Below, piece after piece: positions 1 through 32,604 of a stretch of 33,951 nucleotides of DNA; position 1 is the stretch's first letter; every line of letters begins with the position of its first letter. Source of the DNA: an uncultured Acidobacteriota bacterium (lineage in GTDB: Bacteria; Acidobacteriota; HRBIN11; JAKEFK01); contig CAZDDB010000005.1 in NCBI GenBank assembly GCA_964504105.1, positions 1 to 33,951 on the forward strand, in the 5' to 3' direction. The notes beneath the pieces are model-generated. The model was not told the origin of the DNA and made no database searches. It was given only the letters and a program-made list of their open reading frames with translations. A program made the translations under genes and the position numbers.

Positions 1-55
<55 letters not shown>

Positions 56-61
56 AAGAAT

Positions 62-134
62 TCACCGCAGAGACGCGGAGAACGCAGAGACAGGATTAGG
101 ATTTTTCTCTGCGAGCTCTGTGCCTTTGTGGTGA
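62..134. repeat. Long imperfect hairpin, repeat family A
   Basis: TCACCGCAGAGACGCGGAGAACGCAGAG ... CTCTGCGAGCTCTGTGCCTTTGTGGTGA: complementary arms of 8-9 nt units around an AT-rich spacer. Confidence 0.85.
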
Positions 135-136
135 GT

Positions 137-145
137 ATTATATCA
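137..145 (-). promoter_or_regulatory. Extended -10 promoter (TGATATAAT), probably for tRNA-Ala
   Basis: Perfect TGnTATAAT on the minus strand, directly after the upstream CDS stop and about 80 nt upstream of the tRNA. Confidence 0.6.
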
Positions 146-2044: not shown

Positions 2045-2060
2045 GCTAACTCCTATTTTT

Positions 2061-2170
2061 ACCACGGAGGGCACGGAACGCACGGAGTAATTTATTTTCC
2101 AATTGTTCCCTGATCTGCGCAGTATTTCCTATGATTTCTTCTGCTCTGTGTCTTCCGTGTTCTCCGTGGT
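2061..2170. repeat. Repeat family A hairpin overlapping the nadB 3' end
   Basis: ACCACGGAGGGCACGGAACGCACGGAG ... CTCTGTGTCTTCCGTGTTCTCCGTGGT. Confidence 0.85.
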
Positions 2171-3736
2171 TAATCCTACGATTTCGATGGTACTGTTGCG
2201 AAGGACCGTGTGATGTCCGGTCCATTCCGGATTCTTTGCGGGGAAATCTTCGCGAAAATGAGAACCGCGGCTTTCTTCGCGTTTCCGGGCAAATGAACCA
2301 ATTAATGTAGAGCAATCCAACAAATTTCGCAATTCCAGCTCCGGAAGACTGCGCGGATCAAACGGAGGCATGCTTTCAGCAAAGCGGATCGCTTCCTCGA
2401 TACCGGCGCGGTTGCGAATCAAGCCGAGATGCTGCCAATTGGATTCCTGCAGTTGCAGGCGCAGATCCTGAGGAGGTTTCTCGCAAAGGCGCAGAGTGCG
2501 CAAAGAATTATTATTTTCCTCTTCGCGACCTTCGTGATCTTGGCGTCTTTGCGAGAAATCCTTCATCGCAACGCCGGCGCGGGCGCCGAAGACGAGTCCT
2601 TCGAGCAGCGAATTGCTGGCCAGTCGGTTGGCCCCGTGCACGCCGGTGCAAGCCACTTCACCCGCCGCAAACAAACCGGGAAGGGATGTCTGCGCATCGA
2701 GTCCGGTGCGAACTCCCCCCATCCAGTAGTGTGCACTGGGACTGATGGGAATCAGGTCCGCGGCCAGATCGAGGTCATACGATTCCAGAAACTGATAGAT
2801 GTTGGGAAAACGCGCGCGCAGTTTTTTTCGCGCGATCGAAGTTGCATCCAGGTACACCCATGAGCTTTTTGATTCTTTGATCTCGCTGATGATGGCGCGG
2901 CTGACCACATCACGCGGGGCGAGATCGCCCAGCGGATGAACCTGTTTCATGAAGGCTTTGCCATGCATATTTCTGAGTGTTGCGCCTTCGCCGCGCAGAG
3001 CTTCGGTGAGGAGGAAGCGGGGCGCGTCCGCAAAATGAAACGCGGTCGGATGAAACTGGAAAAATTCCAGATCCATCATTTCGCAGCCGGCCCGGTAGGC
3101 CATAGCAGCGCCATCGGCGGTAGCGACCTCAGGATTTGTTGTGTGGCTGAAGATTTGTCCGGCGCCTCCGGTAGCAAGAAGCACGGCGCGGGCAAAGCAC
3201 GAGCTTGTTTCGCCTGTCTGCTCATCCATTGCAAGAATGCCAAGACAATGGTTGTCCTGCACAATGACGTCAATCGCGGGCGCATGCGAAACGATTTCGA
3301 TTCCGCGTGTCTGCTCCACCCAGTTGAGCAGAGCGCGGACGATCTCTTTGCCCGTGGCATCGCCTGCATGAAGGATACGGTTTCGTGAATGCGCTCCTTC
3401 GCGCCCAAAGACAAACTTGCCGTTGACGGAATCAAACTGCGCGCCCCAATCCACGAGCTCTTCGATGCGCGCGGGGCCGTCTTCCACCAAAACGCGGACT
3501 GCCGGTTCGTAGCACAGTCCGTCTCCCGCATTCAGTGTGTCTTGCAAATGGAACTCGACCGTATCCCCTTCCTGCATCGCAGCGGCAATGCCTCCCTGCG
3601 CCCACCGGGTGTTGCTTTGCGAAGGCTCCCCCTTGCAAAATACGCGGACAGAACCGCTCCTGACCAGCTCAATCGCGGCGCGCAAACCGGCAATGCCCGA
3701 ACCCACAACAATGTAATCGCAACTACTCGTCTTCAT
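2129..3736 (-). CDS. nadB: L-aspartate oxidase
   Basis: GSGIAGL FAD motif, WAQGGIAA, REGAHSRNRILHA, QFHPT, EALRGEG, LAPRDVVSR, HYWMGG, GVHGANRLASNSLLEG, ESRGSHFREDFP. Start set at MKTSS (3736). Confidence 0.95.
   Translation of the reverse strand: MKTSSCDYIVVGSGIAGLRAAIELVRSGSVRVFCKGEPSQSNTRWAQGGIAAAMQEGDTVEFHLQDTLNAGDGLCYEPAVRVLVEDGPARIEELVDWGAQFDSVNGKFVFGREGAHSRNRILHAGDATGKEIVRALLNWVEQTRGIEIVSHAPAIDVIVQDNHCLGILAMDEQTGETSSCFARAVLLATGGAGQIFSHTTNPEVATADGAAMAYRAGCEMMDLEFFQFHPTAFHFADAPRFLLTEALRGEGATLRNMHGKAFMKQVHPLGDLAPRDVVSRAIISEIKESKSSWVYLDATSIARKKLRARFPNIYQFLESYDLDLAADLIPISPSAHYWMGGVRTGLDAQTSLPGLFAAGEVACTGVHGANRLASNSLLEGLVFGARAGVAMKDFSQRRQDHEGREEENNNSLRTLRLCEKPPQDLRLQLQESNWQHLGLIRNRAGIEEAIRFAESMPPFDPRSLPELELRNLLDCSTLIGSFARKREESRGSHFREDFPAKNPEWTGHHTVLRNSTIEIVGLTTENTEDTEQKKS
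2477..2558. repeat. Repeat family A hairpin inside the nadB reading frame
   Basis: Perfect 12-bp terminal inverted repeat TTTCTCGCAAAG (2477-2488) / CTTTGCGAGAAA (2547-2558) around an AT-rich loop. Confidence 0.85.
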
Positions 3737-3741
3737 CAGGA

Positions 3742-3812
3742 AACCACGGAGGCACAGAGACACCGAGTACTATTAATTTTATATCTCTCCGTGCCTTCGT
3801 GCCTCTGTGGTT
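3742..3812. repeat. Repeat family A hairpin between the phosphoesterase gene and nadB
   Basis: AACCACGGAGGCACAGAGACACCGAG ... CTCCGTGCCTTCGTGCCTCTGTGGTT. Confidence 0.88.
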
Positions 3813-3815
3813 ATC

Positions 3816-4556
3816 TTACACGCCGATGGCCAGACGGTTGGCCAGGGATTGAGGCAGTCCCGCTTTCAGGATCTTGTCCTGCGTTTTCGGGATGGAATAC
3901 TCGACTCGTTTGAATGTGACGGTCCTGCTTTCAGAATCAAACATGGCAAAGCTCGCGAGAGGATTCTTGTCCCGCGGCTGTCCGACGGAACCGGGATTCA
4001 CCATATATTTAAAGCCGTTCATGAGGGCGATTTTTACACGCTCTCCGTCCGGACGGAACGTGTACAATCTCTGGTTGCTGACTGCGTAGACAACGGGCAG
4101 ATGAGTGTGACCAAAAAAACAGATTTGAAAATCGAGCATCTGAAATACTTCAAACGCATCGTAATCGCTGAAGATGTAAGCATCTTCATCAATCGGGGTT
4201 CCGTGCGAAATCAGGATGAGGTTATCTACAAGCGCGGGGCCTTGCGGTAGATGGGACAGGTACGAGCGGTTTTCTGTGGTCAGTTTTTTTTGCGTCCATT
4301 GCGCCGATGCCTGGGCCGCGCGATTGAAGTTTTCACCGTTTTCCAGTCCACATGCCACTTTGTCATGGTTGCCGCGGATCACTACGGCCTGTTTTGTTCG
4401 CCGGACGATGTCTACTACCTGGTTCGGATTGGCGCCGTAACCGACGAGATCGCCGAGAACCAGAACGCGATCAAATCGCTTTCGCTTGACGCTCGCAAGT
4501 ACTGCGGAAAGCGCTTCCAAATTTGAGTGCAAATCGCTAATAATCAGATACTTCAT
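3816..4556 (-). CDS. Calcineurin-like metallophosphoesterase
   Basis: Motifs SDLHSN, GDLVGYG, RGNHD, SHGTP, GHTH and NPGSVGQPRD. Confidence 0.92.
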   Translation of the reverse strand: MKYLIISDLHSNLEALSAVLASVKRKRFDRVLVLGDLVGYGANPNQVVDIVRRTKQAVVIRGNHDKVACGLENGENFNRAAQASAQWTQKKLTTENRSYLSHLPQGPALVDNLILISHGTPIDEDAYIFSDYDAFEVFQMLDFQICFFGHTHLPVVYAVSNQRLYTFRPDGERVKIALMNGFKYMVNPGSVGQPRDKNPLASFAMFDSESRTVTFKRVEYSIPKTQDKILKAGLPQSLANRLAIGV

Positions 4557-31955: not shown

Positions 31956-32438
31956 ATGAGAGCAGTCATTATGACCGAATGGACGCGGGGCGAATATAAG
32001 ATCAGCACGGACCGGACGCGTTTGGACGTGGACATGATTCATGGGTATCTGGACCGCTCGTACTGGGCCGCCGGAAGACCGGTCGAAGTGATCCGCCGTT
32101 CGATAGAAAATTCGTTATGCTTCGGCATCTACAAAGTAGAAACCCAGATCGGATTCGCGAGAGTTGTGACGGACTATGCCACGTTCGCATGGGTCGCAGA
32201 TGTTTTTGTGCTCGAAGAATTCCGCGGTCTGGGTCTTTCCAAGTGGCTCATGGAAATCATGATTGCCCATCCCGATCTCCAGGGCTTCCGGCGGTGGGCG
32301 CTGGCCACGAAAGACGCGCACGGTTTATATCGAAGATTCGGGTTCAACGAGCTGAAGCGTCCGGAACGCTGGATGGAACGGCACGATCCGGCGGCAAAGG
32401 AGAATCCGGATTACTGGACGCAAGAGAAGAAATCATGA
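31956..32438 (+). CDS. GNAT-family N-acetyltransferase
   Basis: SYWA, QIGFARVVTD, DVFVLEEFRGLGLSKWL (acetyl-CoA motif), DAHGLYRRFGF. Alternative start at 31971. Confidence 0.92.
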   Translation: MRAVIMTEWTRGEYKISTDRTRLDVDMIHGYLDRSYWAAGRPVEVIRRSIENSLCFGIYKVETQIGFARVVTDYATFAWVADVFVLEEFRGLGLSKWLMEIMIAHPDLQGFRRWALATKDAHGLYRRFGFNELKRPERWMERHDPAAKENPDYWTQEKKS

Positions 32439-32536
32439 ATGAACACGATCAAGCGCTCCGCAGTTTTGTATACAGTCATTTCAACCATTCTTCTCTTGCA
32501 CAGCTGGGGTTGAGCGCGCCATTCTGGAAGCTGTAG
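32435..32536 (+). pseudogene. 33-aa ORF, probably the fused ends of a MerB-like (alkylmercury lyase family) gene
   Basis: MNEHDQALRSFVYSHF + NHSSLAQLGLSAPFWKL*, ATGA-coupled to the GNAT gene. The termini resemble those I recall for MerB-like proteins; not verified. Confidence 0.45.
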
Positions 32537-32540
32537 GATT

Positions 32541-32586
32541 TCACCGCAGAGGCGCGTCTTTGCGGTCTTTGCGGTCTTTGCGGTTT
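32541..32586. repeat. Family A hairpin with a perfect 3 x 9-bp right arm
   Basis: TCACCGCAGAGGCGC followed by (GTCTTTGCG)x3 at 32556-32582. Confidence 0.8.
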
Positions 32587-32604
32587 ATCATAAGATCTAC
32601 TGGA

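Follow-up and report, generated by a model that had tools for sequence, protein, structure and literature searches.

The original reports on the Rickettsia palindromic elements (RPEs) reportedly described palindromic repeats lying in frame within coding genes. Capture of such palindromes by essential genes has been known since these elements, and in-frame palindromic repeats in coding genes are by now established, while examples outside a few lineages are scarce. RPEs are about 150 bp long and occur in dozens of open reading frames (ORFs), including 44 genes in R. conorii, in the account given in PMC10969869, which also describes bacterial transposable elements of the miniature inverted-repeat kind (MITEs) fused in frame to host ORFs. 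Intragenic repetitive extragenic palindromes (REPs) encode 20-30 residues according to the main text of PMC3733652 (Di Nocera et al. 2013); in some species a single ORF is modified, and most of the cases given in that paper concern genes for replication and repair. Here we describe a dispersed palindromic repeat inside nadB, the gene for L-aspartate oxidase, in a 33,951-nt stretch of DNA from an uncultured Acidobacteriota bacterium (GenBank assembly GCA_964504105.1, contig CAZDDB010000005.1, positions 1 to 33,951; hereafter the window). The repeat family and the lineage are new. We consider it probable that a copy of the repeat has replaced a disordered tether in the enzyme, and that the replacement is tolerated, inherited and translated. 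The gene and the element lie as follows.

2129..3736, minus strand: nadB (L-aspartate oxidase), start ATG 3736-3734, stop 2131-2129, from TIGR00551, Protein Data Bank (PDB) matches and ortholog N-termini.
2477..2558, minus strand: core of the intragenic palindromic element, ending in a perfect inverted repeat of 12 bp, its imperfect arms 29 nt long and its loop AT-rich; codes for F403-K429.
2471..2563, minus strand: whole element as delimited with the family consensus AAGGATTTCTCG...CGAGAAACCTCCT, from nhmmer alignments and translation; 93 nt, 31 codons, K401-P431.

Residue numbers follow the listed ORF of 544 aa (2129..3763, minus strand). Its GTG start at 3763 lies inside another repeat copy, and the true nadB start is the ATG at 3736-3734 (MKTSSCDY, matching orthologs). 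The ORF scored 525.5 bits against TIGR00551 (cut-off 452.75) over residues 14-508 and matched the NadB chains of PDB 5kxj, 1chu and 1knp at E=1.5e-104 to 4e-102. PF00890 and PF02910, covering the flavin adenine dinucleotide (FAD)-binding domain and the C-terminal helical domain, were assigned to its product, P0001.

The terminal inverted repeat is perfect over 12 bp (2477-2488, TTTCTCGCAAAG; 2547-2558, CTTTGCGAGAAA), and imperfect arms reach 29 nt at 76% complementarity with 24 nt in between. Written as plus strand, the arms are CGCAAAG-G-CGCAGAG-TG-CGCAAAG on the left and CTTCGCG-AC-CTTCGTG-AT-CTTGGCG-T-CTTTGCG on the right. The minus-strand ORF passes through the segment without a stop (...GLVFGARAGVAMKDFSQRRQDHEGREEENNNSLRTLRLCEKPPQD...), and the repeat translates in frame as FSQRRQDHEGREEENNNSLRTLRLCEK (FSQRR...LRLCEK) or, in the 31-codon version at 2471-2563, as KDFSQ...EKPP; two of the three sense frames are stop-free. 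As coding-strand RNA (96 nt) the region folds at -35.8 kcal/mol against -20.8 +/- 3.1 for shuffled sequences (z -4.84, with none of 200 shuffles folding as well), and the same region folded as DNA gives z -4.34. An earlier note on this DNA had claimed a hairpin with perfect 12-bp terminal repeats in nadB that leaves the frame unbroken, which the sequence and its translation confirm. Its extent of 82 bp is right for the span of the 12-bp repeats at 2477-2558; 82 is not a multiple of 3, the peptide takes 27 codons, and the element as a whole has 93 nt.

A 12-bp inverted repeat alone is too common to be decisive. The window holds two pairs of perfect 12-mer inverted repeats within 100 nt, and mononucleotide shuffles hold a mean of 0.22 and a maximum of 2 (n=200). 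Family membership lifts the hairpin beyond chance, because a family profile built by leave-one-out matches the nadB copy at E=4e-11. Searched against the genome from which the window comes (G000, a 4.09-Mb assembly in 531 contigs and 93.65% complete), the 96-nt nadB region gave 62 matches at E<=10, and nhmmer profiles iterated from a two-sequence seed recovered 41 loci, then 125, then 202. The leave-one-out profile, built from 201 copies with the nadB copy excluded, found 289 loci at E<1e-3, among which the nadB copy ranks 97th (43.8 bits; 2471-2545, about 75 nt).

Family members consist of AAAGGATTTAAC, two to four tandem 9-mers (CGCAAAGAC and variants, the arm unit being CRCRRAG plus 2 nt), an AT-rich loop and the mirror image, with a median length of 77 bp. 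The units CGCAAAG, CACGGAG, CACAGAG and CACGAAG occur in G000, where the triple-unit signature CRCRRAGNNCRCRRAGNNCRCRRAG was counted 147 times against 0.001 expected. Of 41 genomes sampled from the phylum, 18 carry the signature, G000 and the unpublished G035 being counted among them (for example 62 in the same-genus G001, 63 in the sister-genus G003 and 64 in G007; the reversed-pattern control gave 0-1). The nadB copy is a degenerate member, with mixed units and one 1-nt spacer, and ends in the GGATTTCTCG motif common to copies on contigs C3, C298, C35 and C76. Units within one element usually share one 7-nt core, the preferred core being CGCAGAG in G003, CGCAAAG in G007 and mixed in G000 and G001, a pattern that suggests homogenisation within elements and lineage-specific turnover of units. 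Six exact unit strings were looked for and, in the literature searched, were found only in three unrelated vertebrate papers on gap junctions and eye development. The idea that the elements are built to stay open in all frames was rejected, their mean number of open frames being 2.91 of 6 against 2.07 in shuffles and 3.3 in random genomic segments.

It is very unlikely that the palindrome arose in place, or mimics the family by chance, with no origin as a repeat copy. Such an origin would be in keeping with the frequency of single perfect 12-bp inverted repeats, which are not very rare (the shuffle mean of 0.22 is per window), with the lack of any visible empty site or target duplication, and with a nearest copy only 78% identical. 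It is contradicted by the match of about 75 nt to a profile that excludes the nadB copy, at an E value reckoned over the whole genome, and by the family's unit structure (CGCAAAG, CGCAGAG, CGCGAAG), terminal GGATTTCTCG and AT-rich loop.

The family is strongly depleted from gene interiors. A stop-to-stop frame that continues for 60 codons or more to both sides encloses only 28 of the 289 copies, whereas among random 85-bp segments the figure is 1314 of 2000. The proposal of the earlier note that an intergenic repeat family has supplied coding sequence to NadB is upheld by this count and by the profile match, for a family that is mostly intergenic. Nineteen of the 27 non-nadB frames were searched with Pfam; seven had domains, all downstream of the element, and 12 had no family at all. 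Frames on C85, C165 (both) and C269 were judged by eye to be upstream read-through or non-coding, while those on C199, C39 and C56 (two) are weak matches in frames of 153-196 codons and stood outside both the Pfam scan and the inspection. By a crude longest-ORF gene model, 131 copies lie between unidirectional, 57 between convergent and 21 between divergent gene pairs (background 1761, 547 and 431), while contig ends account for 64 more and the interior of crude ORFs for 16; nadB apart, these 16 were judged by eye to be read-through at the N-terminus or spurious ORFs of short length. Among 30 loci sampled in five relatives, no internal copy was convincing. The nadB copy is the sole convincing intragenic copy among the 289 in G000. 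Near the C-terminus of a 223-aa ORF whose upstream part is protein-like lies another family copy (G000:C126:690-772), which may be a repeat-derived C-terminal tail of the kind that NadB itself carries (see below).

The element occupies a hypervariable segment of NadB alignments, with the conserved helix ...NSLLEGLVFGARAG.AM before it and LR..LQ..NW..GL.R as the motif after it. Alignments of 23 genomic orthologs, of 20 proteins (A1) and of 115 of 120 database proteins (five lacking the anchors), together with an AlphaFold2 model, agree with the earlier note that this is the variable linker from the FAD-binding to the C-terminal helical domain. From anchor to anchor the window NadB has 53 residues, and 49 of 50 measured relatives at 65-72% identity have 45-62; the fiftieth, P0052, was measured from a fallback anchor and set aside. 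There is no net gap against E. coli NadB. The relatives' linker sequences bear no relation to that of the window NadB. In G002 and G004 (70-71% identical) the linker has 27 residues against 33 here, and the element makes up 27-31 of these 33, so that on balance the linker is about 6 residues longer than in the nearest relatives. The element thus appears to have replaced the linker and not simply to have added 27 residues, because relatives carry unrelated linkers of similar length; for the same reason some 23 or more ancestral residues were probably lost with or after the insertion. The earlier note had expected the segment to be absent or unrelated in close relatives. Unrelated it is, but it is not missing, a linker of similar length being present in its place.

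No palindrome was found in the nadB linkers of G002, G004 or G006 (locus L055). The nadB of G006, a 73%-complete relative, is frameshifted and split over three frames (G006:C5:24872-26446), which suggests assembly indels or a pseudogene. P0026 and P0031 are near-identical outside the linker (branch lengths 0.026 and 0.036) and have very different linkers, so that by these sequences the NadB linker can seemingly turn over wholesale between close relatives. The linker of P0004 (TKTAKENKFEEPLRPLRL) seems back-translatable to a 9-mer palindrome in another frame, an idea drawn from the protein alone. The AlphaFold2 model, built on a 72-row alignment, has a mean predicted local distance difference test score (pLDDT) of 88.5 and a predicted template modelling score of 0.90. 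It places residues 382-410 in a helix, 411-430 in coil (block pLDDT 57 and 73) and 431-446 in a helix; in the predicted structure the first arm of the element extends the preceding helix and the remainder is a low-confidence loop.

An ortholog from a different data set, P0002 (535 aa, 89% identical), keeps the linker peptide as FSQRRKESEERKEEKNDTLRTLRLCEK, with 19 of 27 residues identical to P0001 and no stop or shift. The residues encoded by the 12-bp inverted repeat are identical in P0002, as known from the protein and as retention of the repeat predicts, and P0002 also shares the NadB C-terminal tail. A quick maximum-likelihood tree of 58 rows was computed without the linker, P0044 and P0053 having been left out because they lack the anchors; in it P0001 pairs with P0002 at a support of 100. 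They are sister to P0010, P0003 and P0013, all without the element, at 90 in the Shimodaira-Hasegawa-like approximate likelihood ratio test, and P0004 is unresolved, not sister to the pair. Because an ortholog at 89% identity keeps the peptide, the insertion appears to be an old, inherited event. A protein search limited to residues 398-437 returned the query itself as sole candidate, which has no bearing on other bearers of the peptide. A metagenome scan with the C-terminal half of NadB gave only the generic CTGVHGAN pattern, at 80 loci of 35-45% identity, and no close relative.

That the element is an assembly artefact, a repeat read collapsed into nadB, is hardly credible. The assembly is a draft in 531 contigs and 64 of the 289 copies lie at contig ends, so much may be said for it; but contigs of two independent studies bridge the element with nadB sequence on both sides, and P0002, from a different data set, has the same peptide. 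The Logan contig from run X1 is 1382 nt long and spans 2100-3439 across the element. That from run X3, of the other study, has 130 nt and spans 2458-2587 with one change (2558 A>C, D to E), in a strain about 2.5% diverged elsewhere in nadB. No joint skipping the element was found among the joints listed for Logan contigs. One X1 contig joins 2176 to 3741 and thereby skips all of nadB (1564 nt), its shorter side measuring 27 nt; both ends lie in repeat copies, and the joint is probably a repeat-mediated mis-join or another locus, a deletion allele of nadB being less likely.

It is likewise highly improbable that the segment is kept out of the protein, by removal from the RNA or by translational bypass, or that nadB is a decaying pseudogene. 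The hairpin is strong, and presence of the segment in the protein is deduced from sequence. However, the frame is open and the length in register, and P0002 keeps exactly 27 residues through 8 substitutions. An Rfam search of the window at gathering thresholds matched only a truncated tRNA and found no known intron or ribozyme. Decay of the gene is contradicted by the end-to-end match to TIGR00551, by strain-level variants that lean synonymous, and by intact nadA and nadC, both present in G000 with open frames. Among the differences listed, 29 were examined in nadB, of which 17 are synonymous and 12 nonsynonymous; they were drawn from the 40 listed, with 22 further places outside that list, leaving out nine places in a conserved pile-up at 2612-2651 and two beyond the gene. 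The gene is single-copy in G000 (E<=1e-60), and by its sequence the enzyme probably still works.

We propose that a copy of the dispersed repeat landed in the DNA for the tether between the last helix of the FAD-binding domain and the C-terminal helical domain, and that the reading frame stayed open after the landing. Most of the ancestral linker would have been lost with or after the insertion, and the chimeric gene would then have been inherited by descendants, which include the P0002 lineage and the strain diverged by about 2.5%. The repeat-derived peptide would be translated and would most likely act only as a hydrophilic, flexible and passive tether, presumably neutral for the enzyme.

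Several observations weigh against this proposal. The insertion is deduced and not observed, because no empty site was seen in close relatives, and it rests on family membership. The same-genus genome G001 is uninformative on this point, because the whole region is absent from its 84%-complete assembly: nadB gave no match at E<=1e-5 beyond SdhA-like ones, and the PpiD-like neighbour is missing as well. Neither a target-site duplication nor a flanking direct repeat is visible at the nadB copy, and the nearest other copy in G000 is only 78% identical. No transposase is linked to the family in G000, and a search of this 93.65%-complete draft for the Y1 transposase PF01797 gave 0 matches, while the control was positive in 6 of 14 known genomes. 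A 242-nt contig from an RNA library (2270-2511) reaches only 35 nt into the element and may stem from DNA carry-over, so that it is a weak hint of transcription; the RNA run X12 was rejected as evidence of transcription, with 8 of 30 bins covered and contigs only. The eight differences between P0001 and P0002 are all confined to the 13 central residues of the 27, the 14 terminal residues being free of them. The chance of such a split is C(13,8)/C(27,8) = 6e-4, for a partition chosen post hoc. The pattern hints at constrained arms, unlike what would be predicted for a purely passive tether.

This last pattern bears on the alternative that the hairpin is kept for a role in nucleic acid, be it ribosome pausing at the domain boundary for stepwise folding and FAD loading, mRNA protection, or a protein-binding site; its origin as a repeat would then explain only where the hairpin came from. 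We regard this as unlikely. The RNA hairpin is stable (-35.8 kcal/mol, z -4.8) and lies exactly at the domain boundary, P0001 and P0002 have the terminal arms in common but differ at 8 of 13 central residues, and unrelated hairpin repeats lie in the same linker of G003 and of the metagenome locus L128. On the other hand, the arms could equally well have been conserved through gene conversion, with some 290 other copies as donors, or through a constraint on the peptide; such a hairpin is missing from G002 and G004, the nearest relatives; and linker DNA at 78 nadB loci is no more structured than its flanks. The proposition that hairpins are general in nadB linkers was rejected on that survey, in which 5 of 78 linkers had z below -2, compared with 6 of 77 control segments taken upstream and 7 of 78 taken downstream.

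The unrelated hairpins belong to two further kinds of repeat. In G003, a sister genus whose NadB is 67% identical, the linker holds a G-rich hairpin, CTCCTCCCCCTTATAAAGGGGGAGG (G003:C121:16757-16781, locus L034/L166), which occurs in that genome at 17 places with up to 3 mismatches (reversed control 0) and with flanking sequence common to the copies. Of the 17, the one in nadB is alone in having a 325-nt open frame around it, and a second, degenerate unit (SLPLDREDA) is found immediately upstream. The peptide of this hairpin, LPL(I/M)KGEA, recurs in P0026, P0034, P0037, P0040 and P0045, all in one clade of 17 rows that also includes rows without the peptide. For the second kind, at L128 (42% identity to the C-terminal part of the query), the NadB linker holds a 78-nt near-perfect palindrome of 7-mers with a minimum free energy of -62.7 kcal/mol (z -7.3), and L098 and L133 have degenerate versions of it. 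These tandem 7-mer palindromes (GTTCCGA / ACTCGGA; AAATTCC; GATTCAA) lie in distant metagenome nadB linkers at the following places.

L128:81-195: tandem 7-mer palindrome in the nadB linker.
L098:1581-1692: tandem 7-mer palindrome in the nadB linker.
L133:1581-1719: tandem 7-mer palindrome in the nadB linker.

Arrays of the 7-mer were found in 14 genomes, the unpublished G058 included, out of 301 from the phylum. Among these genomes, G182, G142 and G105 have no hairpin in the nadB linker (z -0.33, -1.13 and -0.25), and G210 and G044 gave no nadB match at E<=1e-90.

It is possible, though doubtful, that the NadB linker is a recurrent and perhaps preferred landing site for unrelated hairpin repeats in the phylum, beyond mere tolerance. 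The suggestion is made because three palindromic families occupy the linker in three lineages, and because, in the two genomes where this could be examined, the copy in nadB is the only one within a gene (1 of 289 in G000, 1 of 17 in G003). If true, insertion may be directed by hairpins, with the next element drawn to a hairpin already there or to a region prone to structure; or else there may be a benefit in having structured mRNA, or a disordered tether, at the domain boundary. Were the recurrence due to targeting or to selection, NadB would offer a tractable system in which to study how selfish hairpins come by safe places within coding DNA. The greatest interest of this analysis lies in how unrelated hairpin repeats came, independently of one another, to colonise the same linker of the same enzyme.

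Further copies of the 9-mer family lie elsewhere in the window.

2057..2181, no strand assigned: second family copy, with CACGGAG/CACAGAG units, at the 3' end of nadB; leave-one-out profile.
3740..3814, no strand assigned: third family copy, taking up the spacer that separates the upstream stop (3816-3818) from the nadB ATG; leave-one-out profile.
53..140, no strand assigned: family copy (E=2.4e-16) between a PpiD-like gene and a tRNA.
1-55, minus strand: tRNA, cut by the window end; Rfam match.
32529..32596, no strand assigned: family copy whose left arm is short and whose right arm is 3 x CTTTGCGGT; leave-one-out profile.

Every intergenic gap of the co-directional nadB cluster (3814, 2181 and 140) holds a family copy. 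The first arm of the copy at 2057-2181 encodes the last 13 residues of NadB, TTENTEDTEQKKS, with the stop in its loop. This C-terminal tail is found only in P0001 and P0002 among the 20 aligned proteins (A1), and residues 536-544 of the NadB model have pLDDT <50. The other arm gives the next ORF a spurious N-terminus (MRSVPSVVK...); its start is likely the ATG at 2041 (MLELIRRQ). The gene upstream of nadB is a metallophosphoesterase-like ORF with its stop at 3816-3818, and the copy at 3740-3814 creates the spurious GTG-start extension of nadB (3763). In G000 the family yields both spurious N-terminal extensions and real C-terminal tails, nadB having both, and gene starts as well as ends near copies need care in annotation. 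The window's sole other perfect 12-bp inverted repeat within 100 nt, at 32420-32499 (GCAAGAGAAGAA / TTCTTCTCTTGC), is outside the 9-mer family and lies just upstream of the copy at 32529-32596.

Compared with earlier examples of captured palindromes, the new points are an abundant family with 9-mer arms that is widespread in the phylum, a linker that appears to have been replaced and not decorated, and a seemingly old, inherited event. No link between L-aspartate oxidase and such repeats was found among the papers listed in a literature search, and the term 'aspartate oxidase' is absent from the main text of PMC3733652, its supplementary list of REP-decorated proteins aside.

The earlier note had likened the element to the RPEs, and the likeness holds as an analogy, their family most likely not being that of the nadB element. 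As RPEs are described in PMC10969869 and PMC3733652, the two have in common a dispersed palindrome in frame in a housekeeping enzyme, a short hydrophilic peptide, a site compatible with the fold and a host gene left intact. By the same descriptions, from which the kinship is judged, RPEs have many intragenic copies whereas the nadB family has one convincing case among 289; they are about 150 bp long against a median of 77 bp with tandem 9-mer arms; and they are added modules in Rickettsia, while here the host is an acidobacterium, as names on homologs of about 50% identity also indicate, and the linker was apparently replaced. With REPs, in the main text of PMC3733652, the family shares a mostly intergenic location that favours unidirectional and convergent gene pairs, and rare in-frame copies. 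REP units, however, have 20-40 bp and a GTAG or CGTC tag, against a median of 77 bp and a consensus in which no tag is evident by eye, and REPs are tied to REP-associated tyrosine (Y1) transposases, against none matching PF01797 in the G000 draft. MITEs, as far as the ERIC/RU elements, Coxiella QMITE and Nezha are described, resemble the nadB element in being small and multi-copy, with terminal inverted repeats and occasional in-frame fusion, and a perfect 12-bp repeat on 82-93 bp falls within their size and terminal-repeat structure. They differ in that the nadB copy shows no target-site duplication and is a palindrome of tandem units, not a degenerate insertion sequence. By these comparisons the nadB element behaves like RPEs and intragenic REPs and is most likely a member of neither.

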